Shown one piece after another: positions 2,506 to 48,528 of a stretch of DNA of 64,000 nucleotides (its first letter is position 1; each line of letters starts with the position of its first letter). The stretch comes from a virus. The stretch is taken from the IMG/VR virus record IMGVR_UViG_3300048577_000559. The stretch is one strand, 5' to 3'. Under the pieces are notes generated by a model. The model had not been told where the DNA came from. It made no database searches and was given only the letters and a program-made list of their open reading frames with translations. A program made the position numbers and the translations under genes.

Positions 2506-2850
2506 ATGATGAATCGTCGAAGTTTCCTGACCGCCACGGTGTTACTCGCGCTGATTGCAGGTTGCGAGGTGCCGCAGCAACAACAGCAAGGCGGTTGCCG
2601 CCGCCCCAAGGTGCTGGCCTTCACCGCTTCCTGGTGTGCCCCGTGTCAACGGGCAAAGCCCGCCCTGGTCCAGATTCAGGCCGCTGGCGTGGACGTGGAG
2701 ATCATCGACATCGACGCCCATCCCGATCTGGCGAAGAAATACGGTGTCACCAGCGTGCCGACTTTCATCGTCTACGTCTGCGGGAAAGCGCCGGTACGAA
2801 CCAACGACATCCTGGTGGTCGTCTCCTTGACTCGTTTTGGGTGCAAGTAA
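2506..2850 (+). CDS. Thioredoxin-like lipoprotein.
   Basis: Lipobox LALIAGC, followed by a WCAPC (CxxC) active-site motif and a thioredoxin-like SVPTF segment. Confidence 0.6.
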   Translation: MMNRRSFLTATVLLALIAGCEVPQQQQQGGCRRPKVLAFTASWCAPCQRAKPALVQIQAAGVDVEIIDIDAHPDLAKKYGVTSVPTFIVYVCGKAPVRTNDILVVVSLTRFGCK

Positions 2851-3056
2851 TGGCTCGCCGCCGCTGTCGCAACTGCCCGGACGAGCCGCGGCCAACACCG
2901 GAACCCAAGGTGACAAGGACGGTTGGCTCCCGTCGTCGCCGCGAACGAAACACGAGGTTGCACCGGGCCGAACGCCGAAGCAACCAGCGAGCCGCACTTG
3001 CCGCTGTCCCACGCGAACCTGAGATGCAACCTCAATTAAACCAATGATGCCGCTCC

Positions 3057-4730
3057 ATGAATTTTGTGGACGAGTTGCGACAAGCACTAGGGGAGGGATT
3101 GCGGAGCAGCAACCTGCGGTCGTGCAGCCGGTGGGCCGAACATCGACGGGTGATGGGGGCACCTTTTAACGGTCCTTATGGTTTCGCGCGACATCCCTGG
3201 TGCCGCGCAATTCACGACAGCAAGGCGGCCTGGACGGTCGCCATGAAGGCGGCCCAACTGGGCGTGACAGAGACCGGGATCAACCGGGCCTTCTTCACGC
3301 TCGACCAGTCGAAGCGCGACGTGCTTTACGTCCTGCCGACGGCGCTGAACGCGAGCGACTTTTCCAAGGCCCGTTTCGCCACCGCCTTGAAGCTCAGCCC
3401 GTACCTGAAAGACCTGTTCGTCGATACGAACACCGTGGGGTTGAAATCGACCGGCACGAACGTTCTGTACATTCGTGGCAGCCGTGGCGATAGCAACCTG
3501 AAGTCCATCCCGGTGTCCGAGTTGGTCTTGGACGAATTGGACGAGATGGACACCCATGCGGTGTGGCTGGCCTTGGAGCGGTTGTCGGGACAGATCGAGA
3601 AGCACATCCTGGCGATCTCGACGCCGACCGTTCCCAAGTACGGCATCCACAAGCTGTACTTGACCAGCACCCAGGAGCATTTTTGCTTCGAGTGTCCGCA
3701 TTGCGGCCGATGGACCGAGTTGGTTTGGCCCGATTGCGTAGAGATCATCGGCGAGTCGGTCAACGACCCCCGCTGCCAGGAATCGTTCATCAAGTGCAAG
3801 GAATGCAAGCATAAGCTGGACCACGAGGCCAAACCGGAGTTCCTGGCCGGCGGCGAGTGGCAGGCGACGGAAACGAACGTCTCGGCGGAGGAATCGCGTG
3901 GCTTTTACATCAATCAGCTTTACTCGTCTACGGTAACGCCTGGCGAGTTGGTGATCGCCTACCATCGCGGGCTGGGCGACGAAGCGGCGAACACGGAGTT
4001 CCATTGCAGCAAGCTGGGCGTGCCCTTCATCGGCGAGGGCGCTCAAGTCACGGACGAGATGATCGAAGCCTGCGTCAAGGCGCACTCGATCAACGACAAA
4101 CGCCCGCAGATCGGCGGCGACCGCCTGATAACGATGGGCGTGGACCAGGGCAAGACGGGTTACATTTCGGTCGTGGACTGGTTGTTCGATCAGCACCCCG
4201 GCAAGGACATCAATGCGGCAGCCATTGGCAAGTTGCTTTGGTTCGGCAAATTCTCCGGCGAGGAGTGGAGTTACCTGGAGGAGTTGATGCGGGAGTGGCA
4301 GGTCTTGGCCTGCGTGGTGGACGCCGACCCGTTCACCAACGACGCCCGCCGCTTCGCCAAGAAGTTTCACGGCTACGTATGGCTGACGCGATACCGGCGG
4401 GGGCAGACGGCCAAGGAAATCGCCATCAGCGAGGAAGACACGGGGGCACCCTTCGCCACGGTGGACCGCACCAACTGGCTCAGTTGCACGCTGGGGCGGT
4501 TCAAGACGACGCCGCCCCGTATCCTCTTGCCACGCGACATTTCATTCGAGTACCGGGAACACGTCAAGAACCTGGTCCGCACCTACAAGAAGGACGACAC
4601 GGGCAATCTGGCCGCCGAGTACGTGAACACGGGGGCCGACCACTTTGCGCACTCCCTGTGCTACGCCGACATCGGCCTGGCGCTGGCCCCGATTGGTGGC
4701 AATGGGGAAAACGTCGGCAAGGTCACTTAG
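3057..4730 (+). CDS. terL: Terminase large subunit (GpA-like).
   Basis: 557-aa protein with Walker-B-like LVLDELDEMD and a Cys4 cluster CFECPHCG..CKECKH as in GpA-family terminases. It sits immediately upstream of the portal gene. Confidence 0.65.
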   Translation: MNFVDELRQALGEGLRSSNLRSCSRWAEHRRVMGAPFNGPYGFARHPWCRAIHDSKAAWTVAMKAAQLGVTETGINRAFFTLDQSKRDVLYVLPTALNASDFSKARFATALKLSPYLKDLFVDTNTVGLKSTGTNVLYIRGSRGDSNLKSIPVSELVLDELDEMDTHAVWLALERLSGQIEKHILAISTPTVPKYGIHKLYLTSTQEHFCFECPHCGRWTELVWPDCVEIIGESVNDPRCQESFIKCKECKHKLDHEAKPEFLAGGEWQATETNVSAEESRGFYINQLYSSTVTPGELVIAYHRGLGDEAANTEFHCSKLGVPFIGEGAQVTDEMIEACVKAHSINDKRPQIGGDRLITMGVDQGKTGYISVVDWLFDQHPGKDINAAAIGKLLWFGKFSGEEWSYLEELMREWQVLACVVDADPFTNDARRFAKKFHGYVWLTRYRRGQTAKEIAISEEDTGAPFATVDRTNWLSCTLGRFKTTPPRILLPRDISFEYREHVKNLVRTYKKDDTGNLAAEYVNTGADHFAHSLCYADIGLALAPIGGNGENVGKVT

Positions 4731-30378: not shown

Positions 30379-30557
30379 TGATCTTCTCCGGGGTTCTCTG
30401 AATCAGTGGGTGCAACTTCAATGATGTCGCCGCCGTGCTCGTCGGCGAAGGCCGCTTCGTCTTCCGGCCGCTGGTCTACTTCAACTTCGGCGACCAACTC
30501 AGCCCGTAGCACGGAGCGAGAGAGGAAACCGGCGGAACGGTAGATGCGAAAGGTCAT
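30375..30557 (-). CDS. Small acidic hypothetical protein.
   Basis: 60 aa with RBS AAGGAAGGGG. Its stop overlaps the upstream gene's stop and start (ATGA). Confidence 0.35.
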   Translation of the reverse strand: MTFRIYRSAGFLSRSVLRAELVAEVEVDQRPEDEAAFADEHGGDIIEVAPTDSENPGEDQ

Positions 30558-33220
30558 TTGCGGTCCCCTTCCTTGGCTGGCTTCAGAGTCAGATGGGAAA
30601 CGTATTTCTGGTTGGCGTATCCGACCGTCGTTGAGTGGCGGACGGGCAGTTCCTTGCTGACTCGCTTCTTGGACCAGGCGTGTTTTTCGTTGGGCGGGAG
30701 CCATTGCTGGAAGCGGTCGTAGAATTCCGCAAACGGCGTATGCGCGTCGGGCATCTTTTCGCAACACTCGGCAATGAACTGTTCCAATTCCGTTTGATTG
30801 GCTTCTTCGGCGGACAGTTTGCTGGCGGTCGTGACCACCGGCAGTCGGAGCCGGTCAATCATGGGCGGCAATTCCAGGTGCATCAGCGTGTGAAGGAAAT
30901 GCGGGGCCTCTTGTTCAAGGAACGCCTCCATCTTCGGCTTGGCGATGCGTTGCTCGTCCAACAGATCGGCGACGTAGATGGCCGTGATGCGGGTGTCGCC
31001 GGGGAAGATCGGACAATTCTCTTGGCTGTTGGCCGTATGCACCCAATGGGTTGCATTGGGCTGCTCGAAACTGTCCTGGCGCAGCTTGCGGATGGAGATG
31101 GTCCGGCCCGTCACCCATGCCTTGAGTCGTTCACGGGCACCAGGGCACTTCGAGATGTCCACTTCTTCCACAGCACAGATGATTGCCCCGGAGAGTTCGC
31201 CATTGAAGCCATCGCGTCCCTCAAGCGGCCGTTTGGCCTGGACCACGCCCTTGGTCACTAAGAGTTGCAGCGATTCGTGGAAGATGCTCTTGCCGCTGTT
31301 CTCGGGGCCGAAGAAGAAAAGGTATGGTGTGGGTTGAAACGGATCGCGGAAGGCACACGCCACCCAGGCACGGAGATAGTCGGCCCCGGTCCTAATTCCG
31401 GCGTCAATGGCCCAGGGCAATTCCCGCAGCCTGGGCGTTAGCTCGTGGCCGATGTGGTCGAAGATCAAGTCCCAATGCGGATGGCAGGGAATCTCGTCGT
31501 CGGCCAACTCGGCGGGCTTGTACTTGAACTGGGCGGCGTCCATGTTCCATTGCCGGCCGCCGGGGTACTCTTCGCGGAAGGGGAGGTTGACCAAGCGCCA
31601 GCCACGGGCAACGGCCCCGCCCATGATGGCCTCGGCGTCGGCCTTGGCCTGCCCCAGGTTTTGCAGGATCATTTTCACGTTGGCGGCCGGCTGCCGGACC
31701 CATTCCTTGTTCTTCTTCACGACCCAGCCGGCGTGCTCGACGGCGGCGGTCTCCAACGCGCGGATGATTCCGTCAAATTCATTGAAATCCAGGTCGTTCT
31801 CTTCCTTGGGGTCCGTCTTGATCTGGAAAATCTTGACGTACTTCCCCTTCTTCTCTTCCCAGCCTTTCAACGGCTCTTCGTCTTTCCTCTTCCGCTCGAT
31901 CTCCACTACCAATCGGCCGTCCTTGTGGGCCTTGAGCGTCACCTTGCGGTCCATGACGCTCGGGTCCAGCTTGAGGTCTTCGCCCAGGCTTTTCGCGGCC
32001 TGGATGGCGGCGTCTGCCGACGCAAAGACATAGCCGCCTTGCTCACGCTCCACGCCGCCAAGTAGCGTGCAAGCAATCTTCAGGTCCGGGTAGCGGTTGA
32101 AGTAGCAGGTGGTCCAGCCTTGACCGTCCTGAGTCCAGGTGTCGGCCTCGGCGATGCCGGGCGAGAAGCGATAGACCCGCCAAGCCCCGTTGGGCAGCGG
32201 AAAGAGGAAACAGTTGGGCGTGCCAGGGTCGCGGCCCTCCGAGATCGTCTTGAAGATGCCCACTAGCTTCAGGGCTTTTCCTTCGGGGCCATTCAAGAGT
32301 TCGCGGAGCGCTGTGGTGTGACTTTGCAGGAGATGGTGGTCAGCCACCCAGAGCGTGGTGGCCCCGGAGCGCATCAGGGCCTCGATCTGCGCCTTGTGGC
32401 TGTCGTCCAGGGGAATGATCTTCCGGCTGGAGGCGAGGGCCTCGAAAGGGTCCGTATCGTCTTCGGCTACCTCGTTGATGCGGACCTTCGTGCGGCGACC
32501 CCTGACCACTTCGATATGGTCCCGCCAGTTGGCCGGCAGATCGGCGAGTGAGAGGCGCTTCTCAGCGGGCTTGATGATCTCCAGCCCGTGGTTCTCGACC
32601 GACATCTTGCGGTGCCAAATCCACATGACGTGGCCGCAAGCGTCGATCGCGCTGGCGAAGTCGAAGCCCACCTCGGCCGACATCATCCCCAGGATGCAGC
32701 GGGCCAGGGCAGCGTGCTCGGTGTGGTTGGCGGTCGGCACGCCAGCATCGTCGAGATAGACATAGAGGTGGATGCCGCCGCCGCCCGTGCTGCGGCGAAC
32801 TTCGACGTAAGGCAGGGCGCAAGCCGCCTGTTTGACTTTCTCTAATTGGGCCTCGTCGATGCCAATGCCTTGGGCGTGTCCGGTCAGGGCATCGAAATCA
32901 TAGCCGAAGTGACGGGATAAGCGGGCCTGCCAATCCCAGCCTGTCATGCCGATCCCTTCGGCGTACAGGTCGAAGGGATAGCCGATCTTGTAATCTTCCC
33001 ACGTCGGGTCCGTGGCCGCGTTCTTCGGGATGCGGATGGAGTGCCAAGTGTCGCTGCCGTTCGTCCAAGTGGACTTCTTCCCGGCCACCGGCTCGCCGTC
33101 GCCGGCCATTACGTTGACCTGCGTTTCCATTGCTGCGGACCAGCGATCCACCAGGTCGGCGTTGGCCGGCGTCTTCCGGGCATGAAGGAAGTCGTAGAGC
33201 GATTCGCTGACTAAGGGCAT
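30554..33220 (-). CDS. DNA primase / SF3 helicase (P4/D5-like primase-helicase).
   Basis: 888 aa. N-terminal primase-like region with STGGGGIHLYVYLD, and a C-terminal Walker A FFFGPENSGKS as in D5/P4 SF3 NTPases. Start MPLVSESL at 33220. The longer ORF to 33562 is rejected. Confidence 0.65.
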   Translation of the reverse strand: MPLVSESLYDFLHARKTPANADLVDRWSAAMETQVNVMAGDGEPVAGKKSTWTNGSDTWHSIRIPKNAATDPTWEDYKIGYPFDLYAEGIGMTGWDWQARLSRHFGYDFDALTGHAQGIGIDEAQLEKVKQAACALPYVEVRRSTGGGGIHLYVYLDDAGVPTANHTEHAALARCILGMMSAEVGFDFASAIDACGHVMWIWHRKMSVENHGLEIIKPAEKRLSLADLPANWRDHIEVVRGRRTKVRINEVAEDDTDPFEALASSRKIIPLDDSHKAQIEALMRSGATTLWVADHHLLQSHTTALRELLNGPEGKALKLVGIFKTISEGRDPGTPNCFLFPLPNGAWRVYRFSPGIAEADTWTQDGQGWTTCYFNRYPDLKIACTLLGGVEREQGGYVFASADAAIQAAKSLGEDLKLDPSVMDRKVTLKAHKDGRLVVEIERKRKDEEPLKGWEEKKGKYVKIFQIKTDPKEENDLDFNEFDGIIRALETAAVEHAGWVVKKNKEWVRQPAANVKMILQNLGQAKADAEAIMGGAVARGWRLVNLPFREEYPGGRQWNMDAAQFKYKPAELADDEIPCHPHWDLIFDHIGHELTPRLRELPWAIDAGIRTGADYLRAWVACAFRDPFQPTPYLFFFGPENSGKSIFHESLQLLVTKGVVQAKRPLEGRDGFNGELSGAIICAVEEVDISKCPGARERLKAWVTGRTISIRKLRQDSFEQPNATHWVHTANSQENCPIFPGDTRITAIYVADLLDEQRIAKPKMEAFLEQEAPHFLHTLMHLELPPMIDRLRLPVVTTASKLSAEEANQTELEQFIAECCEKMPDAHTPFAEFYDRFQQWLPPNEKHAWSKKRVSKELPVRHSTTVGYANQKYVSHLTLKPAKEGDRK

Positions 33221-33304
33221 GACATCTCTCTGAAAGGCCGCGTCGGTCGATCCGTAGTGAGCGTATAAACGCGCATGGCATCGGGCCTCGAATAGCGGGC
33301 CGCG

Positions 33305-33393
33305 TAGACACCTATACAAGACTGCCAAAAGCTCGCAGTTTCCCAGAAATGTTGGGAAAAAACGGGACTTTGGCAGTCTTGTATAGGTGTCTA
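33305..33393. promoter_or_regulatory. 25-bp perfect inverted repeat (TAGACACCTATACAAGACTGCCAAA ... TTTGGCAGTCTTGTATAGGTGTCTA) in a divergent intergenic region.
   Basis: Arms at 33305-33329 and 33369-33393 separated by about 39 bp, between the divergent primase-helicase and ParB-like genes. Confidence 0.55.
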
Positions 33394-33413
33394 CGTATGA
33401 CGCGGATGCACCG

Positions 33414-34343
33414 ATGCCTGAGCAACTGCCCGACGAGTTCCGACTAATTTCCCTGGACCAGATTATCGAGCCGTGGGTCGTCCTGCGGGTCGTGAACCGG
33501 GAGTCCATTGAGTACCTGGAACTGCGTGATTCGTTGGCGGCAGTCGGCCCGCTGAATTCCATCTGTGTGCGACCGTCCGAGCGGCGGCCCGGCTGTTACG
33601 AAGTCGTGGACGGCCTCTATCGGTACACGGCTGCCGTGGAATTACGGCTGCCAGCGCTGCCCTGCATCGTGAAGCACAACCTCACCGACGACGACGTACT
33701 GGCGCTTCAGATTCAGGCCAATGCCTTGCGGCCCGAAACGACGGCCGTGGAGTACGCGCGGCAGATCAAGCGGATCATGGACGCTCTCACGACTCGGCAG
33801 GGCATGGACGCAACGCTGGCTGACGTGAGCAATCTGATCCACAAAGGGACGGCCTGGATCGGCGATCAACTGAGGCTGCTGAGTCTGCGGCCGGACATCC
33901 AAAAGGCCGTGGAGCGTGGCGAGATACCGCTGAAGTCGGCCTACATGCTCGCCAAGCTGCCGCGCATCCATCAGGCGCAGTTAGTGGAACTGGCGAAGAC
34001 GGTCCCGGCACGGGAGTTCGTTCCCGTGGCGGCTCGTCTGGTCAAGCAGATTCAAGAGGCCGCCCGTCAAGGGAAGCTGCATGATCTCTGCAAGGACTTC
34101 GAGCCGGTGCCTCACTTGCGGCCCTTGAAGGACCTATTGGCCGAGTACCGCGAGCATCAGCTTGGCGGTTTGGCACTCACGATGGCTGACTGCAAGACGC
34201 CGGTGGATGGCTGGTATCTGGCCCTAGAGTGGGCGCTGAACCTGGATCAGGAGAGCATCCGCGAACAACGAGAGAGAGTCCTGGCGCGGAGCCGCGCGAA
34301 TCTCTTGGAACGGAGGGTAGAGCCATGTGACGACAACGAGTGA
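33414..34343 (+). CDS. ParB/Srx-like N-terminal domain protein.
   Basis: ParB-N-like segments LELRDSLAAVGPLNSICVRP..YEVVDGLYRYTAA. Start at ATG 33414, or GTG 33387. Confidence 0.5.
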   Translation: MPEQLPDEFRLISLDQIIEPWVVLRVVNRESIEYLELRDSLAAVGPLNSICVRPSERRPGCYEVVDGLYRYTAAVELRLPALPCIVKHNLTDDDVLALQIQANALRPETTAVEYARQIKRIMDALTTRQGMDATLADVSNLIHKGTAWIGDQLRLLSLRPDIQKAVERGEIPLKSAYMLAKLPRIHQAQLVELAKTVPAREFVPVAARLVKQIQEAARQGKLHDLCKDFEPVPHLRPLKDLLAEYREHQLGGLALTMADCKTPVDGWYLALEWALNLDQESIREQRERVLARSRANLLERRVEPCDDNE

Positions 34344-34360
34344 CCCACCTTCTCGACGCT

Positions 34361-34406
34361 TGAACCCTGAATCCTGAACCTTGAATCCTGAACCTGAACC
34401 CTGAAA
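34361..34406. repeat. Six tandem 7-bp repeats TGAA(C/T)CC, iteron-like.
   Basis: tgaaccc tgaatcc tgaacct tgaatcc tgaacc tgaaccc, immediately upstream of the 34415 start. Confidence 0.6.
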
Positions 34407-34414
34407 GAACAGCC

Positions 34415-35152
34415 ATGTCCGACACCGCTTTGGTTCCCATCAATCTCGACCAGCTTCCCTCCACCCAGATCGGCACCGACGATCAGTTCGCCGAACTGGC
34501 GAAGGGCGGCGACTACATCGGCCGGATGCAACTCTACACGAAGTCGAAGGCCAACATGAAGGGCCTCATTCCGCAAGGCCACTACGGCATCCCCGAGTCC
34601 GATGAAGAGATCATCGACTTGGGGACTGCCGTGGACCTGCTCCCGCTGGCCCGCCGGCCCAAAGCCATTGACATGACCGACATGGAGGCCCTGGTCATCT
34701 CCTACGACATGGAATCAGAGGAGTTCAAGCGGATCGCCGCTAAGTCTACCGAGTCCGATTCGCACTGCCAGTACGGCCCCAGCTTCTTGGTCTACGAGCG
34801 GAGCACCGGCCGGTTCCTGGAATTCTTCTGCGGCAACAAGTCGAGCCGCATTGAGGCCAAGAAGCTCTTTCCTTTCCTGCCGCTCACCCAGGCGGACATC
34901 AATGCCAAGGCGGCAGCCGGCAATGCGGTCGGCGATCTCAAGCCACACGGCCCGATCCCCGTCACCTTGAAGGTCAAGGTGGCCGAGAACCGCAAGGGCA
35001 CTTGGCACGTTCCCGTCGTGGTGATGTGCTCTACGCCATTCACCCGGTTGCCTTCCGATGACGTAATCGTGCGGGAGATCAACAAGTTCCTCACGATCAA
35101 GGACAACGGCGTCGAGAAGGTCCAGGACAGCAAGCCGGCCCGTGCCCGGTAG
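34415..35152 (+). CDS. Hypothetical protein, a candidate replication or recombination factor.
   Basis: 245-aa ORF preceded by the heptamer repeats and followed by a terminator. Confidence 0.4.
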   Translation: MSDTALVPINLDQLPSTQIGTDDQFAELAKGGDYIGRMQLYTKSKANMKGLIPQGHYGIPESDEEIIDLGTAVDLLPLARRPKAIDMTDMEALVISYDMESEEFKRIAAKSTESDSHCQYGPSFLVYERSTGRFLEFFCGNKSSRIEAKKLFPFLPLTQADINAKAAAGNAVGDLKPHGPIPVTLKVKVAENRKGTWHVPVVVMCSTPFTRLPSDDVIVREINKFLTIKDNGVEKVQDSKPARAR

Positions 35153-35163
35153 TCTCCTCTTCC

Positions 35164-35209
35164 GCCGAGGGCGGCGATGGCGACCGCCCTCGGCCTCTCT
35201 TTCTCTTCC
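35164..35209 (+). terminator. Rho-independent terminator.
   Basis: 11-bp stem GCCGAGGGCGG/CCGCCCTCGGC with a 9-nt loop, followed by CTCTCTTTCTCTTCC. Confidence 0.55.
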
Positions 35210-35322
35210 GCTTGGCCTCGGCCTAAGCGCGGCCTGACCGTGGGAAGCTGGAACAGGTGTGCCACGGCCTCAACCGGATTGTCGGTGAAGGGGATTCCAG
35301 CAAGCGGAGCCACTGTAAGACC

Positions 35323-35850
35323 ATGATGCCTGACGCCGTATTGATCCAAGTCCCCAGCATTGACTTCCGCACCTTCATTGGCCTCAGCCATAAGGTGTTG
35401 GGCCGCTCGCCGGCTGCGCCTTCAGATGCTTGCCGGCGGCAGTTATCGGATGCCGAGCGATTCCTAAGCTGCCTAGCGGCGATGCGCGACGAGCGGGCAC
35501 CTGTGGGGCTGTCGCCCCATCTACTGAAGCATGTCTCGTTCAGCGCCTTCATTGGGGCTGATGAACGGGACATGCTCGACATCCTCCAGCTTTGCGCGGG
35601 AATGTCGTTTGTAGTGGTGGAGACTCTGGTGCGGGGCGTCCAGGCGGCCGTCGTCACCGGCACCCTCTCCCAGTGGCGGGATGCCGTTGTCTCGGGATGC
35701 AGCAAAGGCATCCCAACGCCCGTCCGGCACTGCTTCAACAAGTTGCACGGCCTCTTCATGGCCGCCGGCCTGTACGTCTGGGGCGACTACTCGCCCCGCA
35801 GTGCCCCGGACCAAACTTTTCTGCTCCTGGAAGACAAAAGGGGCCGGTAG
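35323..35850 (+). CDS. Hypothetical protein.
   Basis: ORF running 35257-35850. Start taken at MMPDAVLIQ. Confidence 0.3.
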   Translation: MMPDAVLIQVPSIDFRTFIGLSHKVLGRSPAAPSDACRRQLSDAERFLSCLAAMRDERAPVGLSPHLLKHVSFSAFIGADERDMLDILQLCAGMSFVVVETLVRGVQAAVVTGTLSQWRDAVVSGCSKGIPTPVRHCFNKLHGLFMAAGLYVWGDYSPRSAPDQTFLLLEDKRGR

Positions 35851-35852
35851 CA

Positions 35853-35890
35853 CTCCAGATTCACGGCCGGTTTACGATCTCCCAGCGGAG
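35853..35890 (+). promoter_or_regulatory. Bipartite motif copy A: CTCCAGA-N16-GATCTCCCAGCGGAG.
   Basis: Exact match of both half-sites with a 16-nt spacer, 33 nt upstream of the ATG of the 35923 gene. Confidence 0.5.
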
Positions 35891-35922
35891 TGACTGTCAT
35901 TGCTTTCGTGTAAGAACCTATC

Positions 35923-37617
35923 ATGCAGCCCTTCTTCGAGCAGAACAACCTGAGCCTGTATTGCGGCAACTGCCTCGACGTGCTCGCCACGCTCCCCGAG
36001 GCGTCCGTGGATTACGTCGTGACAGACCCACCCTACCTTCTCAACTTTATGGAGAAGGATTGGGACGCTGCTGGCGGCGACATCCCAACAAGCGAGTTGG
36101 TATTTCGGTCCTGGTTCGCCGGTTTGGTTGCCGGGGAGGCGTGCTTCCGAATCCACCGTGAAAAGGACGGAACCTACTACGCTTGTGAGTTCAACATCAA
36201 GATGCGTGCCGATGAAGGCCCGCTGCTGCGGGCGTTAGCTCGGCGCATCGAAGCAGGGAATGTGCAGGACATTCCGGCTGAGTCGCGCGCTGTGAATAGT
36301 GGACCAGCCGTGAAGTGGGTTGTCCACTCCCGCGAGGATTGCTGGAAGATCGCCCGCTTGTTGGACGGCACGCCACTCTATGCGAAGAAGCAACGTGAAT
36401 ACGATCTGTGGCGCAGAGCCCTGAACGTCTGGACGACAACGCCGCGTGGCAACCGTTGGTGTGGTCCGCGCGACAATTCGGCAATGGAATCCTTGTGGGA
36501 GGAGATGAAGACGCTGCGGCCGTTCGATCAGGACTTGGCTGATGGCGACTTCGATCCGCTGCGGCAACCGGATTACCTCTTCCACAATCGTTGGGCGAAA
36601 GCCTGCCTGCGCGTTGTGAAACCCGGCGGCCTCCTGCTGGCGTTTGGCGGTACACGCACCTATCACCGGCTGACTTGCGCAATCGAGGACGCCGGGTGGG
36701 AGATTCGGGACGCGCTGATGTGGCTCTATGGGCAGGGGATGCCCAAGTGCGGCGACATCGGCAAACTGATCGACAAGTCGAAAGGCGCGAAGCGCGAAAT
36801 CATCGGCGACAAGTTGGATCGTCCCGGCTACCACTTGCACGAAGGCAAGGGAAACGGGTGCTACGGCGGCGGCAACGGACTTCATGCCCCTGGCACGGAT
36901 GCTCGGCTTCGCGCCGCGCAGATAACGGCACCGGCGACTCCCGAGGGCGCGAAGTGGACCGGCTGGGCGATGGCGTTGAAGCCGGCCTGGGAGCCAATCG
37001 TCCTGGCGATGAAGCCGCTGGACGGCACGATTGCCCACAACGCCCTGACCTGGGGCGTGGCCGGCATGAACATTCAGGCTTCCCGCATCGGCAACGAGAG
37101 CACGATACGCACTCGCGGGGACAGCTTGACGGACGCCGGCTGGGCCAGCACGAACCGCTCGCCTCTGGGCGGGTCGGAATGCGGGCGATGGCCGGCGAAC
37201 TTACTGCTGGACGAGGAAGCGGCTGTTCAACTGGACACTCAAGCGGGCACGCTTACGAGCGGCACCAACTGCGTCCGCACGAAATCCGGCGACGGCTACC
37301 ACGGCCGTCTCGGTAAGGCGGGCGATGTGCAGATCAGCTACGGCGACTCCGGCGGAGCGAGCCGGTTTTTCTACTGTGCTAAAGCGACACGCACGGAGCG
37401 CGGGCCGGGCAACGACCATCCGACCGTTAAGCCCCTGGCCCTCATGGAGTACCTGTTGACGCTGCTCTCGACCCCGGATGGCGGCGTGATTCTGGACCCC
37501 TTCGCCGGCAGCGGCACCACGCTCTTGGCCGCCAAAAGCCTTGGCCGCCGTTGCATCGGCGTCGAGTTGACCGCACACAACTGCGAGATCGCCCGAGGGA
37601 GATTGCATGTCGCTTGA
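35923..37617 (+). CDS. DNA methyltransferase (N6A/N4C, beta class) with an embedded LAGLIDADG-like domain.
   Basis: Motif IV DPPY near the N-terminus, RVVKPGG downstream, and motif I DPFAGSGTT at the C-terminus. An insertion of about 180 aa contains WFAGLVAGEACF...GPLLRALARRIEAGNV...WKIARLLDGTPLYAKKQREYDLWRRAL, matching the LAGLIDADG homing-endonuclease pattern. Confidence 0.65.
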   Translation: MQPFFEQNNLSLYCGNCLDVLATLPEASVDYVVTDPPYLLNFMEKDWDAAGGDIPTSELVFRSWFAGLVAGEACFRIHREKDGTYYACEFNIKMRADEGPLLRALARRIEAGNVQDIPAESRAVNSGPAVKWVVHSREDCWKIARLLDGTPLYAKKQREYDLWRRALNVWTTTPRGNRWCGPRDNSAMESLWEEMKTLRPFDQDLADGDFDPLRQPDYLFHNRWAKACLRVVKPGGLLLAFGGTRTYHRLTCAIEDAGWEIRDALMWLYGQGMPKCGDIGKLIDKSKGAKREIIGDKLDRPGYHLHEGKGNGCYGGGNGLHAPGTDARLRAAQITAPATPEGAKWTGWAMALKPAWEPIVLAMKPLDGTIAHNALTWGVAGMNIQASRIGNESTIRTRGDSLTDAGWASTNRSPLGGSECGRWPANLLLDEEAAVQLDTQAGTLTSGTNCVRTKSGDGYHGRLGKAGDVQISYGDSGGASRFFYCAKATRTERGPGNDHPTVKPLALMEYLLTLLSTPDGGVILDPFAGSGTTLLAAKSLGRRCIGVELTAHNCEIARGRLHVA

Positions 37618-39643
37618 GTCCGTGAAAATCGAAGCCCAGACATCCAGCGGCACGCGGATTCGTGTGCCTGTGCTGTTGGAGAAGAAGGATGGCCGCATCT
37701 ACTTCTGGGACGGCAAGGTCGGCACGAAGACCCGCTACGGATTGATGTCGGAAGTCAAGGCCATGCGCGGCGCGCATTTCCACGGCTACGACGATGAGGG
37801 CGAGTACGCCAAGATCAAAGTGTGGTCCGTGGACGACTGCCAGCGCAACCGTTTCCAGATCGGCTATCTCTGCGGCGAGGATGTCTACGCCTGGTTTGAC
37901 CGCCCGCTTCTGCGTCACGAGTACCGGTCGCTGACGCGCGGCGGCGTACCGCAGACCTTCATGCCGCATCAGGCAGACCTGGCCGACGCCGGCCTGACGT
38001 ACCACTACCAGATATTCGGTGCCGAAATGGGCACCGGCAAGACCCTGGCCGCCCAGATGGTGATTGAGAAGTCGGGCGTCGATCTGGTGTGGTGGGCAGG
38101 CCCAAAGACCAGCATCCCAAACATCAAGCGCGAGTTCAAGCTGTGGGGCTTCCCCTTCGACCGCATCCAGGTCGAGTTCTTCACCTACGAGGGGCTAGTC
38201 CGCGTGATGGACGAGTGGGACGGTTCGCAGACCTTGCCTCGGTGCTTCGTGGCCGATGAATCGAGCCGGTGCAAGAACGACACCTCGCAACGCTCCAAAG
38301 CCTGCCAGAAGCTCGCGGACCTGATCCGCGCAGAGTATGGCCACGAGGGCTACGTGATCGAGATGTCTGGCACGCCGTCGCCGAAGACGCCATGCGACTG
38401 GTGGAGCCAGTGCGAGATTGCCTGGCCGGGCTTCTTGAAAGAGGGCAGCCGCAGGGCGATGGAAGAACGGCTGGCCTTCATGGTCGAGCAGCAGTTCGAT
38501 GCCGGCAAGTTCAAGAAGCGGATCGGCTGGAAGGACGACGAACGGAAATGCGCCCAGTGCGGAGAGGCATTCGAGGAGGGACCGCACGAGTTGGATGGCC
38601 TAACGGAACCTGATGACTACCACAAGTTCGTCCCGAGCACGAACGAAGTTGCCTATCTCTACGACCGGCTCAAAGGGCTGGTCGTCATCAAACACAAGAA
38701 GGACTGCCTGCAACTGCCCGAGAAGCGATACCGCAAGATCGTCTGCAAACCGACCGCCAGCACCTTGCGCGTAGCCGAGGCCCTTGTCAGCGCCGCCCCC
38801 AATGCCGTCACCGGCATGACTCTGCTGCGGGAATTGAGCGACGGATTCCAGTACCGCGAACAGCAGGATGGTGTAACGAAATGCACGCATTGCACGGACG
38901 GCACGGCAGCGGAATGGGTGGACCCGGACGATCCCGAGGCCGCCTACCAGGCCATCGACCTGCTAGACCCAGAGTTGAAGGCCCGGTTAGTCAAGCAGAC
39001 CGTTCCTTGCCCGGCGTGCGGCGGCAAGCGGGAAGTACCGAGGATGGTCCGCGTGACACGGGAAGTCCCGTGCCCGAAGGACGCCGCCCTGAAGATGCTT
39101 CTGGACGAGAACGAGGAAGTCGGGCGGCTGGTGATTTTCGCCGGCTTCACGGGTTCCGTGGATCGCATCATCAGGCTGTGCCTCAAGGAAAAGTGGGACG
39201 TGGTGCGGTGCGACCAGGGGAACTTCCAAGTGTTCCGTGCCAAGAGCGACAGCCCGGATGGCACGCTGGCGACCGAGGAAGAGCCGCTGGATTACTGGGC
39301 AAATGTGGAGGGCCACGGAAAGGTTGCCTTCGTGGCCAACCCCGAGTCGGGCGGAATGAGCTTGACGTTGGTGGAGGCCCGTATGGCGGTGTACTGGTCC
39401 AACAGTTGGAAGCCCGAATACCGCGTGCAAAGCGAGGACCGCATCCATCGCAAGGGCATGGACGAGAACCTGGGATGCACCATTGTGGACCTTATCCATC
39501 TGCCGAGCGACAGCCGCGTGCTCGACGTGATTCGCGCCAACCGGAAGTTGGAGCTAATGACGATGGGCGAAATCCTTGAGGGCGTCGATTGGAAGGACGC
39601 TGGCGACGACGGCGAAATGTCGGTGGAGGAAGTGACGCCGTGA
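37607..39643 (+). CDS. SNF2-family helicase.
   Basis: Walker A GAEMGTGKT, DExx box FVADESSRCKN, and C-terminal helicase motifs (SGGMSLTL, QSEDRIHRKG). A Cys-rich insertion is also present. Confidence 0.7.
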   Translation: MSLESVKIEAQTSSGTRIRVPVLLEKKDGRIYFWDGKVGTKTRYGLMSEVKAMRGAHFHGYDDEGEYAKIKVWSVDDCQRNRFQIGYLCGEDVYAWFDRPLLRHEYRSLTRGGVPQTFMPHQADLADAGLTYHYQIFGAEMGTGKTLAAQMVIEKSGVDLVWWAGPKTSIPNIKREFKLWGFPFDRIQVEFFTYEGLVRVMDEWDGSQTLPRCFVADESSRCKNDTSQRSKACQKLADLIRAEYGHEGYVIEMSGTPSPKTPCDWWSQCEIAWPGFLKEGSRRAMEERLAFMVEQQFDAGKFKKRIGWKDDERKCAQCGEAFEEGPHELDGLTEPDDYHKFVPSTNEVAYLYDRLKGLVVIKHKKDCLQLPEKRYRKIVCKPTASTLRVAEALVSAAPNAVTGMTLLRELSDGFQYREQQDGVTKCTHCTDGTAAEWVDPDDPEAAYQAIDLLDPELKARLVKQTVPCPACGGKREVPRMVRVTREVPCPKDAALKMLLDENEEVGRLVIFAGFTGSVDRIIRLCLKEKWDVVRCDQGNFQVFRAKSDSPDGTLATEEEPLDYWANVEGHGKVAFVANPESGGMSLTLVEARMAVYWSNSWKPEYRVQSEDRIHRKGMDENLGCTIVDLIHLPSDSRVLDVIRANRKLELMTMGEILEGVDWKDAGDDGEMSVEEVTP

Positions 39644-41131: not shown

Positions 41132-42448
41132 ATGAAGCTGACAAAGAAGAAGGTTGAGAAGATCAAGACCGCCATCGTCGAAGGCGTCACGCAACCCGAG
41201 ATCGCCAAACGGTTCAAGATCAGCCGTTCCGTGGTTTCAGACATTGCAACGGGCCGGGTCCACAAAGACGTGGACTGGCCGGGCGGCCAGCCGCCGACGC
41301 CCAGGCGGGCCGGCGGCCAGCATAAGAACCTCCCAGACTACGACCCGACCGACAAGCGGGTCTTGGAGTTGGAGGCCGAGATCGTCCACCTGACCGAGGA
41401 GCGGAACCGTGAACGGCAAAAGGTCAAGGCCGGGGCGAAGATCGCGGGCCTGTTCAAGGCCGTCGTTGCGGAAATGGAACAACGCATCAAGCCGGTTGAG
41501 CCGTTGCCGCCGGCCTTTGAGTACCGCCGCAAGGCGCAGATCGTCGAGCACTGTGTCATGCACCTTTCGGACGGCCACCACGATCAGGTCGTGGTTCCCG
41601 ATCAGGTCGGCGGGCTGGAAGACTACGACTTTCCTGTCTCGTGTTGTCGTGCCGAGCGGTACGTCAACACGGTCGTGGAATGGACCCAGGACACCCTGGC
41701 CCCGACGTTCTATTTCCCCGTTCTGTGGGTGCTGGCCTACGGCGACTTCACCAGCGGCGAAATCCACAAGGCGTGCGAGCGGTCGTACTACCGCAACCAG
41801 TTCAAGAATTGCCTCGCCATCGGCCAGTTGCACGCCTTGATGTACCGCGACCTGGCCGCGCACTTCGAGGAGGTCCACGTCTTGTATTTGGCCGGCAACC
41901 ACGGCCGACGGACTCCCAAGAAGGATTATCTCGGCGCGCACGACAACTGGGATTACCTGGTCGGTGAGGTCGCTCGTCTGCATTGCCGTGGCGTGGAGAA
42001 CGTCCACTTTACGATTCCCGATGCGTGGAGCGCCAACGTCAACATCAACGGCGTCGGTTTCAACATCGCGCACGGCGACGACGTTCGCTCCAACCTGGGC
42101 ATCCCGTGGTACGGCATGGTCCGGCGGCAAAAGGGCCTGATCGCCCTGGGCGCGGCGGCCGGTGCCCAGCGTTGCCGCTATTTCTGTGTCGGCCATCATC
42201 ATGCCGCCAGCGTCTTGTCCGACGTGGATGGCGAACTGCTGGTCAACGGGTCATGGGTGGGCACCGACGCCTTCGCCTACAACTCCTTGTCCGGCTACCG
42301 CGAGCCGTCTCAGTGGCTTCATGGCGTCAATCCGAAGCACGGCATCACTTGGCGGATGAACTGCAAGCTGCGCCACGAGAACGAGAAGAACGGCCCCACG
42401 CGCTATTTGATCGACGGTGGCCGCGATGTGGGGCCACTGAAGATCTGA
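41132..42448 (+). CDS. HTH-domain protein fused to a calcineurin-like metallophosphatase.
   Basis: N-terminal HTH (TQPEIAKRFKISRSVVSDIATGRV). Phosphoesterase motifs VMHLSDGHHD, GNHG, GHHH. Confidence 0.55.
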   Translation: MKLTKKKVEKIKTAIVEGVTQPEIAKRFKISRSVVSDIATGRVHKDVDWPGGQPPTPRRAGGQHKNLPDYDPTDKRVLELEAEIVHLTEERNRERQKVKAGAKIAGLFKAVVAEMEQRIKPVEPLPPAFEYRRKAQIVEHCVMHLSDGHHDQVVVPDQVGGLEDYDFPVSCCRAERYVNTVVEWTQDTLAPTFYFPVLWVLAYGDFTSGEIHKACERSYYRNQFKNCLAIGQLHALMYRDLAAHFEEVHVLYLAGNHGRRTPKKDYLGAHDNWDYLVGEVARLHCRGVENVHFTIPDAWSANVNINGVGFNIAHGDDVRSNLGIPWYGMVRRQKGLIALGAAAGAQRCRYFCVGHHHAASVLSDVDGELLVNGSWVGTDAFAYNSLSGYREPSQWLHGVNPKHGITWRMNCKLRHENEKNGPTRYLIDGGRDVGPLKI

Positions 42449-46032: not shown

Positions 46033-48528
46033 ATGAGCAAGCATCCGCCGAAACTCTACCTCGATACGGAGACATGCGGGCTGCACAGCATGATGGTGCT
46101 GTTGCAGTACGCCGTGGAAGACGGCCTCATTGTCCTGTACGAGGTTTGGCGGCGGCCCGTCCGCGAGACGCTGGCGCTGATCGAGTGGATATGCCAGCAT
46201 ACGGTTGTGGGCTTCAATCTGTCCTTCGACTGGTTCCACGTCTGCAAAATCTACACCGTCTTCCGCCTATGCGACCCGGACTGGATACCCGAAGAGCACA
46301 TCCACGAGATCGCCATGTTGGAGCCGCAGGGGCAGGACGGCCCGTGCATCAAGCCGGCGGCGGTCCTGGACCTGATGCTCCACAGCCGCAAAGGCCCTTA
46401 CCAGTCGCTAATGGCCCGCGAGGATGTCAGGATCAAGCGGGTTCCCACGGCCCTCGCCTACGCCCTGGCCCGCGAGCTAGAGGCCCGTGTCCAGTTCGAC
46501 AACATCTACTTCGCCAAGTCGGCCGACCCGGAAGCGCCCAAGTGGCAGGTCTTCGACCGGCACGATTCTTTCGGCGATCTGGATACCGAGTTCAAGGATG
46601 TCGTCTTGAAGTTCAACCCGGCTGGCGGCCTCAAGTTCCTCGCCGAGCACGCCCTGAAGCTCAAGCCCAAGTATCACTACAAGGACGTGGAGCCGCCCCC
46701 GGCGTGGCGGCCTTACGAGTTGGGCTATGCGCCCACGGCCCTGGCCGTGTCGAGTCCCGAAAAGGACTGGGCAATCGAGGCTGACGAAGACGGCGGCAAG
46801 AAAGTCACGAAGTACGCTTGGCCAGCCGTGATTCGCCAATTCATCCACCACTGGGCCACCCGTGAAGATGCCCGCGACTATGCCAACGACGACATCGTTT
46901 ATACGCGCGAGTTGGACAAACACTTCGGCTGCCCGGAGCCGGGTGACAACGACTCCACCTTGACCTGCATGGTGGCGGCCGTCCGCTGGCACGGTTTTAC
47001 AATCAACCGCGAAGGGATCGAAGCCCTGAAGGCGAAGGCCGAGGCGGCAGTGGCGGCCAGCCCGGTGAACATTAACAAGCCGAGCGAGGTCCGCGCCTAC
47101 GTCATGGCCGCGATGGACGGCACCGAGCACCTGATTCTCGACACCTCCACGAAGAAGGCCAACCTCGAAGCGATCAGCAGGTGGGGCATCGGCCAAATGT
47201 GCCCGGCGTGCAAGGGCAAGGGCCACCTGGACAAGGAAACGGACATTTGCCCGCAGTGTAACGGTGTCTGCTACGTCGGCGAGCCGGAGCCGTGCGGCAA
47301 GTGCCAGGGCGACGACCCGCACTGCGCACGCTGCGGCGGTACGGGCTTCCTGAAGGTCGGCCGGCACCCGGCCGGTGCCCGTGCCAAGGAGATCCTCGGC
47401 GTCAAGTTCGCCGCCAAGGAAATCGAGCTATACGACAAGTTGCTCTTGGCCGGCAAGTTCCATGCCTCGTTTGTCGTGATTGGTGCCCTCTCGTCCCGCA
47501 TGGCCGGGGCGGATGGCCTCAATGCCCAGGGGATCAAGCACACCAAGGAAGTCCGGCAGACGTTCCCCTTGGCCTGGAATGGGTATCTGCTCTGCGGCGG
47601 CGACTTCAGTTCCTTCGAGGTGACAATCGCTGACGCTGTGTGCGACGACGAGGCGCTGCGCGCCGAGTTGATTGCTGGCCGGAAGATTCACGCCCTGTTC
47701 GGCATGGCGATCTTCCCCGGCACGACCTACGAAGAGGTCAAGTCGAGCGACGGCAGCACGACCAACGATATGTACACGAAGGGCAAGCAAGGCTTCTTCG
47801 GTACGATGCTTTATGGCGGCGACCATAGCACGCTGGTCAACCGTCTGGGCATCAGCGAAGAAGTCGCCAAGCACGCCATCGAGAGCTTCGGCAGCCGCTT
47901 CGTGGGCGTCAAGAAGTGGCGGAAGCGGGTCGCCGATTCGTTCTGCTCCATGACCCAGCCGGGCGGCATCGGCACCAAGGTCGTTTGGAAAGACCCGGCC
48001 GATTACGCCGAGACGATGCTGGGGTTCCGTCGCTACTTCACGCTCGAAAACCGCATTTCACGCGCGATCTTCGATCTGGCCCGCAACACGCCCAAGCACT
48101 GGAAGGACTGCAAGGTCAAGGTGGTCCGCCGTGACCGCGTGCAGACTGCCGGCGGCGCGGTCTCGTCGGCCCTCTACGGGGCGGCGTTCTCGATGCAGGC
48201 GGCCAACATGCGGGCGGCGGCGAACCATGAAATCCAGTCGCCTGGTGCCGAAATCACCAAGCACGTCCAGCGGCAGATTTGGGACTTGCAGCCGGTCGGT
48301 GTGAACGATTGGCACGTCGCCCCCATGAACATTCACGACGAGATCATGTGCGTCACCCGCCCGGACATGGTTCCAAGCGTCACCGAGGTTGTCCGCGAGT
48401 CCGTCGAGCACTTCCGTCCCTACGTGCCGTTGATCGGTATGGATTGGTGCGAGGGCATGAACAACTGGGCGGAAAAGAAATCGGGAGCCACGCAGGTCAA
48501 GATCAGAGCGCCGGAGATGATGAAGTAG
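46033..48528 (+). CDS. Family A DNA polymerase with 3'-5' exonuclease domain and a DnaJ-type zinc-finger insertion.
   Basis: Exo I YLDTETCGL. Pol motif A GGDFSSFE, motif B K..GFFGTMLYGG, motif C NIHDEIM. Inserted (CxxCxGxG)x4 module CPACKGKG, CPQCNGVC, CGKCQGDD, CARCGGTG at 47199-47345. Confidence 0.8.
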   Translation: MSKHPPKLYLDTETCGLHSMMVLLQYAVEDGLIVLYEVWRRPVRETLALIEWICQHTVVGFNLSFDWFHVCKIYTVFRLCDPDWIPEEHIHEIAMLEPQGQDGPCIKPAAVLDLMLHSRKGPYQSLMAREDVRIKRVPTALAYALARELEARVQFDNIYFAKSADPEAPKWQVFDRHDSFGDLDTEFKDVVLKFNPAGGLKFLAEHALKLKPKYHYKDVEPPPAWRPYELGYAPTALAVSSPEKDWAIEADEDGGKKVTKYAWPAVIRQFIHHWATREDARDYANDDIVYTRELDKHFGCPEPGDNDSTLTCMVAAVRWHGFTINREGIEALKAKAEAAVAASPVNINKPSEVRAYVMAAMDGTEHLILDTSTKKANLEAISRWGIGQMCPACKGKGHLDKETDICPQCNGVCYVGEPEPCGKCQGDDPHCARCGGTGFLKVGRHPAGARAKEILGVKFAAKEIELYDKLLLAGKFHASFVVIGALSSRMAGADGLNAQGIKHTKEVRQTFPLAWNGYLLCGGDFSSFEVTIADAVCDDEALRAELIAGRKIHALFGMAIFPGTTYEEVKSSDGSTTNDMYTKGKQGFFGTMLYGGDHSTLVNRLGISEEVAKHAIESFGSRFVGVKKWRKRVADSFCSMTQPGGIGTKVVWKDPADYAETMLGFRRYFTLENRISRAIFDLARNTPKHWKDCKVKVVRRDRVQTAGGAVSSALYGAAFSMQAANMRAAANHEIQSPGAEITKHVQRQIWDLQPVGVNDWHVAPMNIHDEIMCVTRPDMVPSVTEVVRESVEHFRPYVPLIGMDWCEGMNNWAEKKSGATQVKIRAPEMMK

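Follow-up and report, generated by a model that had tools for sequence, protein, structure and literature searches.

The 64,000-nucleotide (nt) viral DNA analysed here (IMG/VR record IMGVR_UViG_3300048577_000559; the window) carries a complete open reading frame (ORF) at positions 35923..37617 of the plus strand, encoding 564 amino acids (aa) plus a stop codon, in which a LAGLIDADG domain is embedded in a beta-class N6/N4 DNA methyltransferase. The frame runs without interruption along all 564 aa. It matches N6_N4_Mtase (PF01555) in Pfam (E 9.7e-30), the DNA methyltransferase family phrog_67 in PHROGs (E 3.3e-64) and CcrM (6pbd) in a sequence search of the PDB (E 2.9e-19), where M.RsrI and M.MboII are also matched. 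By sequence similarity, the ORF is a beta-class adenine/cytosine-N methyltransferase related to these three enzymes. Its motifs follow the beta-class order, with motif IV DPPY (aa 35-38; 36025-36036, +) located N-terminal to motif I FAGSGTT (aa 527-533; 37501-37521, +). A preliminary description made from the sequence alone had recognised both the methyltransferase class and a genuine LAGLIDADG domain, which are borne out by Pfam, PHROGs, the PDB and a profile of the insert. All of the motifs it quoted are present, with DPPY lying one residue before the aa 36-39 given there.

An in-frame insertion after motif IV

A database search returned more than 100 homologs of approximately 400 aa which are without the middle segment of the window protein and are up to 87% identical to it (BLASTP local alignment), together with nine homologs carrying that segment. 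Alignment with the insert-less proteins P0003 and P0005 (83-87% identical) places the insertion point after W47-D48 and before approximately Y218, where it separates motif IV (DPPY...WD) from the conserved helix that follows. The insert-less proteins read ...DPPYGLSFMEKDWDHEVPGPEYWRAIARVSKPGA..., while the window reads ...DPPYLLNFMEKDWD, followed by about 169 aa and then by YLFHNRWAKACLRVVKPGG.... Since the junctions are read against insert-less homologs, the insert corresponds to aa 49-217 (36067..36573, +), with boundaries precise to within a few codons. It is an in-frame insertion that encodes a complete LAGLIDADG homing endonuclease, single-domain and I-CreI-like. The preliminary description had located it correctly between motif IV and the following conserved block, while its limits (36043-36588) were drawn slightly too wide.

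On the upstream side, the methyltransferase contributes an N-terminal segment of 48 aa (aa 1-48; 35923..36066, +) comprising motif IV and the FMEKDWD loop, collinear with the insert-less P0005 encoded in locus L002. Directly after the insert follows the helix YLFHNRWAKACLRVVKPGG (aa 218-236; 36574..36630, +) and then the C-terminal methyltransferase body (aa 237-564; 36631..37614, +), to which the Pfam and PDB matches extend, which contains HPTVKP at aa 499-504 and which shares approximately 91% amino acid identity with P0003 and P0004. In the AlphaFold2 (AF2) model the methyltransferase core is predicted confidently, with a predicted local distance difference test score (pLDDT) above 90 for aa 1-38, and the methylase part matches CcrM structurally in Foldseek.

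DNA comparisons were made on protein-guided codon alignments, as a plain MAFFT DNA alignment misplaced the short N-terminal segment. The window and the syntenic insert-less locus L002 are identical at 115 of the first 141 nt (82%) and, beyond aa 241, at 75-97% of positions per 60-nt block, mostly at 80% or more. The 20 codons just downstream of the insert are poorly conserved (25/45). The helix encoded here exists in two versions: insert-bearing alleles read [DQS]Y.FH..WA...[LF]RV.KPG and insert-less alleles PEYWRA.ARV.KPGA, with one residue less between the W and KPG. The sequence version of this helix goes with the presence of the insert and is probably part of a co-converted unit. The empty site of L002 and L008 reads ...TTCATGGAGAAGGACTGGGACCAYGAGGTTCCNGGACCCGAGTATTGG....

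The insert encodes a single-domain LAGLIDADG endonuclease

Both a profile search and a structure prediction of the full protein, proposed as checks in the preliminary description, reveal a LAGLIDADG fold. LAGLIDADG_1 (PF00961) is matched at aa 66-166 above its gathering score of 23.1: the whole protein scores 28.5 bits and the insert, searched on its own, 31.7 bits. A profile built from 11 inserts matches solved LAGLIDADG endonucleases, including the I-OnuI family, I-AniI and I-HjeMI, with E-values of approximately 1e-20 to 7e-20. Matches of this strength, and the recurrence of the architecture in ten independent database sequences, go far beyond chance. In the AF2 model of the full protein, aa 56-206 form a separate and confident alpha-beta-beta-alpha-beta-beta-alpha-alpha domain containing the LAGLIDADG core fold, joined to the methylase core by linkers (aa 39-51 and 209-217) with pLDDT values below 50. 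In Foldseek, this domain matches whole single-domain enzymes, with TM-scores normalised to the target of 0.71 (I-TnaI), 0.66 (I-CvuI) and 0.66 (an I-CreI variant). Modelled alone, the insert reaches a pLDDT of 85.9 and a predicted template modelling score (pTM) of 0.80.

The signature helix already noted in the preliminary description is WFAGLVAGEACF (aa 64-75; 36112..36147, +). It includes E72 (36136-36138, +), the putative metal-binding acidic residue ending the LAGLIDADG helix, which aligns with the GEG/AEG of I-OnuI-family domains and, by analogy with the family, would have a catalytic role. A Lys-Lys pair identified by alignment, K155 and K156 in YAKKQREYDLW (36385..36390, +), lies further downstream. 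E72 and both lysines are invariant in 11/11 aligned inserts, which are themselves just 38-81% identical. The second lysine (K156) aligns with the K of '...ITQKHGDY...' and '...LGVKSQDF...' in an I-OnuI-family enzyme; it appears from this alignment to correspond to a conserved lysine in the active-site region of LAGLIDADG enzymes and may be equivalent to K98 of I-CreI. The insert is a complete single-domain, one-motif LAGLIDADG endonuclease of the I-CreI type. One-motif LAGLIDADG endonucleases act as homodimers and, by analogy, the insert in the window would need to dimerise; it would be expected to have endonuclease activity.

Reading frame and absence of splicing elements

Inteins were sought with Pfam and NCBIfam, and no Hint or intein model was matched in either even at E<=10. 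The first residue of the insert is A49, with no Cys, Ser or Thr at this position, and the downstream junction reads FHN-R (aa 220-223), R223 following 'FHN' in place of a Cys/Ser/Thr nucleophile. A conserved nucleophile is lacking at either junction in the homologs inspected, and the Asn of 'FHN' is Tyr in most of them (FHYQW, FHYRW, FHYEW). This segment aligns with a CcrM methylase helix, so that 'FHN' is host sequence rather than the end of an intein. The LAGLIDADG fold fills the 169-aa insert nearly fully, with approximately seven residues before and 11 after it, leaving no space for a splicing domain. The unusual junctions reported in the preliminary description, and its conclusion that this is not a standard intein, are hence upheld; there are no splicing blocks, no nucleophiles and no conserved HN.

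Introns were considered likewise and rejected, as a permissive Rfam scan (E<=1) of positions 34000-39000 identified no group I or group II intron. Between the window and locus L003, differences within the insert at codon positions 1/2/3 number 46/34/106, with 71 codons showing synonymous changes only and 51 non-synonymous ones; in the C-terminal tail of the insert the respective numbers are 9/5/25. The insert is under purifying selection in the methylase frame. A concealed out-of-frame ORF, of the kind seen in the ShiLan domain discussed below, was also rejected: the other two coding-strand frames contain five and seven stops across the insert and the substitutions fit the methylase frame. One reading frame is kept through both junctions in all ten insert-bearing sequences, in accordance with a single ORF rather than two genes joined or split by a frameshift artefact. 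Given the lack of splicing elements and the frame and codon evidence, the insert is translated together with the methylase and, to judge from the sequence, is retained in the protein.

Distribution and mobility of the insert

When 121 methylases were aligned with the insert removed, the closest backbone relative of every well-sampled insert-bearing gene proved to be insert-less. The respective backbone identities are 91% for the window (with P0003 / P0004), 95% for P0001 (with P0038), 89% for P0002 (with P0063) and 93% for P0024 (with P0067), while the best insert-bearing partners share just 55-75% backbone identity. Inserts are often more similar to one another than their host genes are; those of the window and P0024 are 71% identical, compared to 52% for their backbones. 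Neighbour-joining with Fitch parsimony requires at least five to six gains or losses in 100/100 bootstraps, and 5/10 insert-bearing genes have an insert-less gene as their nearest neighbour in 100/100 replicates. The insert is polymorphic in presence and absence at one fixed site and, having been gained or lost repeatedly, behaves as a mobile element.

The closest pair of insert-bearing and insert-less genes, P0001 (L029) and P0038 (L030), was used for comparing the flanks. The upstream 22 nt are identical and codons -31 to -17 relative to DPPY agree at 44/45 positions, after which identity falls to 35/48 in the 16 codons preceding DPPY. On the far side of the insert, the first ten codons from KPG agree at 23/30 positions and the 30 codons after that at 84/90. 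The flanks of this pair look co-converted, in that their profile has the shape that would be expected of a conversion tract from a diverged donor arriving with the insert. P0038 (L030 1001-2437) additionally contains an internal tandem duplication of approximately 80 aa, in which the block GR.PAN.LLDE...GDSGGASRFF occurs twice. A further observation concerns the insert-less P0039 (L013 6103-6200), which has flank residues typical of insert-bearing alleles, DPPYSLNFMEKEWDKA..., comparable to DPPYLLNFMEKEWDKA... in P0001; these may be the trace of a past loss of the insert or of recombination with an insert-bearing allele.

A library-wide search with the insert profile yielded 5078 hits, of which the best 150 clusters (50% identity) were considered and 44 candidates were checked for flanking motifs. 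Approximately 32 of these best 150 clusters are methylases with the domain at the same site, flanked by DPPY...WD and ...RVLKPGG, while the remainder look, from their length and number of matched stretches, like stand-alone one- or two-domain LAGLIDADG proteins.

Free-standing relatives and other endonuclease elements

Among the stand-alone relatives, the 167-aa protein P0123 (49-53% identity) has ends that coincide with those of the insert at both sides. Its gene in locus L001 follows a ParB-like gene and directly precedes an insert-less methylase gene, with its start overlapping the ParB stop and its stop overlapping the methylase start. A second stand-alone relative, P0154, is encoded upstream of a ligase-like gene. 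The methylase beside the free-standing LAGLIDADG gene (2670-3173) in L001 (ENA ERZ25038328 NODE_4973) is broken just past DPPYG, at 3166-3300. The break consists of an 8-nt insertion containing a stop (TAC GGA TAATTGGA CTC...) and splits off a 34-aa N-terminal piece bearing the DPPY. The break was seen in one contig only; it could represent a target made resistant to cleavage or scarred by repair, or else an error of assembly.

Three other insert types are found in sister methylases, at L013 6981-7406, within L028 1410-3179, within L027 1261-2898 and at L001 4025-4426. In each the methylase frame reads through as filler, an out-of-frame HNH-type ORF is hidden within and no intron or intein is present. 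The hidden ORF of L013 matches HNH_3 in Pfam (E 7e-17), while those of L028, L027 and L001 contain HNH or zinc-finger motifs recognised by eye only. In a Planctomycetota-associated phage group, these elements thus parallel the ShiLan domain of actinophages. In P0191 (646 aa), an HNH-like motif (CQKCGEKRKLEAHHIKSF...CEECH) occupies residues ~20-70, in place of the N-terminal half of the LAGLIDADG insert, which suggests that one endonuclease gene is nested in or displacing another.

Much longer LAGLIDADG-insert methylases also occur, namely P0132 (934 aa), P0198 (836 aa) and P0086 (865 aa). The first two read ...YG followed directly by CL..DT, resembling a true intein N-terminus at a second site. 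Such a start fits the separate methylase intein described in PMC9957025, and real inteins in this methylase family are thus recognisable.

Genomic context and other features of the methylase gene

The surrounding region of the window is a phage-type replication module, encoding a primase (30554-33562, minus strand), ParB (33387-34343), an SNF2-type helicase (37607-39643), an exonuclease (41132-42448) and a DNA polymerase (46033-48528). This gene order is shared by locus L002, where the insert is absent. The nearest genomic relatives are found in Planctomycetota metagenome-assembled genomes (MAGs), and all of them are insert-less. An exact-protein look-up found no copy of the window protein on record elsewhere.

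Within the methylase gene, the segment at 37087-37380 (aa 389-486), between the conserved GRWPAN and SRFFY blocks, is poorly conserved, has pLDDT values of 31-49 and bears large indels in several homologs; it is probably a variable target-recognition region. A sub-threshold Rfam match to the c-di-GMP-I-GGC riboswitch at 36751-36836 (+), inside the coding sequence (E 0.49; 19.2 bits, the gathering score being 59), is almost certainly due to chance. A second, small N6_N4 methylase gene is located downstream in loci L003 (11228-11975) and L004 (11231-11979). It is called as two ORFs in each, which are adjacent and slightly overlapping in L003, and separated and differently sized in L004, and it may be another interrupted methylase.

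Comparison with known systems

The arrangement has a precedent in actinophages. In nine methylases of cluster-F mycobacteriophages, Taj gp79 among them, Gosselin et al. 2023 (PMC9957025) described a LAGLIDADG domain as a 'second homing endonuclease'. It lies outside the intein that those methylases can also carry, lacks a splicing element and is predicted to fold as a domain of its own; they found it monophyletic in actinophages and saw no strong sign of its transfer. Arsenault et al. 2025 (PMC11855218) refer to a 'seemingly lone LAGLIDADG... vertically inherited', while in Kelley et al. 2016 (PMC5050341) the lone domain is not mentioned. The carriers named in the first two studies include Taj gp79, Wee and Akhila gp67. 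In tblastn, the window insert matches Taj, Wee and 12 other phage records (E 8e-21 to 7e-20), and it is homologous to the actinophage domain, the identity being 41% over 83% of the insert (E 8e-21). Taj gp79 reads ...DPPYNLSFMAKTWD, the insert and ...WAAECLRVLKPGG. Matches to the insert extend to the Rhodobacter phages RcMrWorf, RcAqua and RcAquaphina; the translation of RcMrWorf gp52 has the identical insertion site, and both the methylase and LAGLIDADG domains are matched in Pfam in Taj and RcMrWorf. The window shares with the Taj gp79 type the PF01555 host gene, the site between ...WD and the W..E.LRVLKPGG helix, a homologous in-frame insert predicted as its own domain, and the absence of a detectable intein or intron. 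As the insert is homologous and occupies the same site, the window is a further example of this known arrangement. It differs in that its nearest relatives are found in Planctomycetota MAGs rather than mycobacteriophages. Furthermore, the nine copies of the Taj gp79 type form one clan, whereas the inserts studied here are dispersed among close relatives that have none, bear flanks resembling co-conversion tracts and have stand-alone homologs.

The ShiLan domain and the hidden HNH insertions (PMC11855218) likewise place an endonuclease gene in a phage methylase without an intron or intein, leave the host frame open and show a disjunct distribution. There, however, the HNH is encoded in another frame than the methylase and the in-frame peptide is filler, while in the window the LAGLIDADG domain is itself the in-frame peptide; the insertion sites also differ. 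The in-frame rps3-LAGLIDADG fusions of fungal mitochondria, such as I-OnuI and I-LtrI (Gibb and Hausner 2005; Sethuraman et al. 2009; both cited in PMC7902536), resemble the window gene in joining a LAGLIDADG gene to a host coding sequence without a splicing element of its own; PMC3073962 offers nothing informative about rps3 fusions. Such enzymes are among the best matches of the insert profile, one carrying the PDB name 'Ribosomal protein 3/homing endonuclease-like fusion protein'. These enzymes are two-domain monomers, fused to rps3 terminally or nearly so and lying within an organellar group I intron of a eukaryote, whereas the window insert is a single domain internal to a bacterial-virus enzyme, with host sequence on both sides.

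In its length of ~150-170 aa, its one LAGLIDADG motif and its conserved acid and lysine, the insert is similar to I-CreI, I-MsoI, I-CvuI, I-TnaI and I-Vdi141I. These homodimers are separate proteins encoded in group I or archaeal introns. The insert, in contrast, lacks its own start and stop codons, is joined to the methylase through both of its termini and shares just 11-21% identity with these enzymes. As with the LAGLIDADG inteins PI-SceI, PI-PfuI and those of actinophage methylases, it lies in frame in a conserved region of a nucleic-acid enzyme and is co-translated, but it lacks Hint, terminal nucleophiles and a conserved HN, has one LAGLIDADG domain rather than two, and belongs to PF00961 rather than the intein-type PF14528. 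The seg and mob genes of T4 encode phage homing endonucleases that stand alone and are propagated by intronless homing (PMC3943268; see PMC10055350), and have in common with the window the phage setting, a nuclease gene beside or within DNA-metabolism genes and co-conversion of flanking markers. They are mostly GIY-YIG or HNH, intergenic and equipped with their own translation signals, unlike the window copy within the frame of its target gene; the arrangement of P0123 and P0154 is exactly of the T4 type.

Proposed homing and alternative explanations

The insert is likely to be a selfish homing-endonuclease gene of the I-CreI type which resides in frame, unspliced, in the surface loop following motif IV of the methylase. 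It would be transcribed and translated within the methyltransferase and would not be removed from the mature protein, where it would form a distinct domain held by two flexible linkers. On this proposal the methyltransferase fold could still form because the insert is such a separate, flexibly linked domain, and the fusion protein would retain methylase activity since the insert hangs in the loop after motif IV. Two fusion proteins would pair via their LAGLIDADG helices to give one endonuclease, which would cut insert-less alleles, in a co-infecting phage or prophage, around the junction of ...TGG GAC with CAY GAG GTT CCN GGA.... Repair from the insert-bearing allele would then copy the insert with some of its flank, amounting to homing with co-conversion.

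Several observations weigh against this interpretation. The window copy reads GEA, with Ala in place of the usual Gly after E72, which might weaken helix packing; the same variant is found in the free-standing P0123. The empty site is weakly pseudo-palindromic, with 7-8/11 pairs, which is within chance over the ~62 positions tested, and because it is only weakly palindromic the assignment of the target site is a guess. The clean local drop in flank identity is seen only in the sister pair P0001/P0038, and the DNA flanks of the window, L029 and L003 show no clear grouping by insert status. The higher conservation of inserts relative to backbones could partly reflect stronger constraint rather than transfer, and the vertical appearance of the actinophage copies makes long residence without movement possible.

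A domesticated, bifunctional enzyme, in which the domain is kept as a long-site DNA-binding or targeting module, or as a nuclease directed against competing phages alongside methylation, is unlikely, although it would account for the purifying selection on in-frame translation, the invariance of the catalytic-type residues and the intact frame at both junctions in all ten insert-bearing sequences. By analogy with CcrM (6pbd), the domain would also adjoin the DNA-facing loop after motif IV, and the actinophage copies look vertically inherited (PMC9957025). Such a recognition or nuclease module was one of the two possibilities raised in the preliminary description. It is not favoured here: methyltransferases with 89-95% backbone identity manage without the insert, which is scattered over the tree and requires at least the five to six gains or losses given above, stand-alone homologs exist, the diverged flanks fit homing and LAGLIDADG enzymes are not described as components of restriction-modification systems (PMC9957025). 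A selfish element, which has to spare its host gene, would be expected to come under selection on the frame just as much. Slightly less probable again is that the domain arrived by homing and is now an inactive passenger late in the homing cycle, which stays because precise deletion is rare and the loop tolerant. The cyclical gain, decay and loss of homing endonucleases is an established model into which such a stage fits, and both the GEA variant and the absence of an exact copy of the protein from the record elsewhere are consistent with it. The insert, however, contains no stops or frameshifts, its fold is predicted confidently and its key residues are intact, while the third-position bias points to ongoing purifying selection over the whole domain, C-terminal tail included.

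Removal of the insert by unrecognised protein splicing, or by an unusual intron that reads through in frame, is very improbable. High G+C permits long chance open frames, true inteins appear at another site in phage methylases such as P0132 and P0198, and group I introns do occur in phage genes (PMC3706429). Against these stand the negative Rfam, Hint and intein searches, an insert that begins with Ala and is followed by Arg after an 'HN' whose Asn is not conserved, a codon-position pattern indicating translation in the methylase frame, and a folded LAGLIDADG domain that takes up the whole insert and leaves no room for a splicing domain of ~130 aa or a ribozyme core. The other possibility raised in the preliminary description, a degenerate or non-splicing intein remnant, is not supported, as nothing intein-like was detected, P0123 and P0154 are stand-alone homologs of exactly the insert and the 'HN' is accidental.

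A bolder reading is that residence in a tolerant surface loop of a dimeric enzyme may be a general third way for homing endonucleases to persist in conserved genes, besides introns and inteins, with dimerisation of the host assembling the two half-endonucleases into a coupled methylase-meganuclease that would serve as a self-marking weapon between phages. This is a doubtful proposition; if true, the cutting of rival phage genomes would depend on the methylase scaffold and the element would not be a pure parasite.

Implications

The arrangement is one already described in mycobacteriophage methylases, to which the window adds a member from a distant phage lineage. New with respect to the 2023 description of the actinophage domain are the evidence for its repeated gain or loss, the pattern of its flanks, its free-standing relatives and the breadth of its distribution, the element spanning phage groups as different as those of Planctomycetota-associated, Rhodobacter and Mycobacterium phages. 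For annotation, such genes should not be labelled as intein-containing or frameshifted. In practical terms, the inserts represent small meganucleases of one domain whose natural target, the methylase allele without an insert, can be predicted, and they show which protein loops tolerate a domain of 170 aa. The free-standing relatives suggest from where the insert originated. As a natural case of a homing endonuclease persisting within a coding sequence without a splicing device, the element bears on the origin of inteins and intron-encoded endonucleases.

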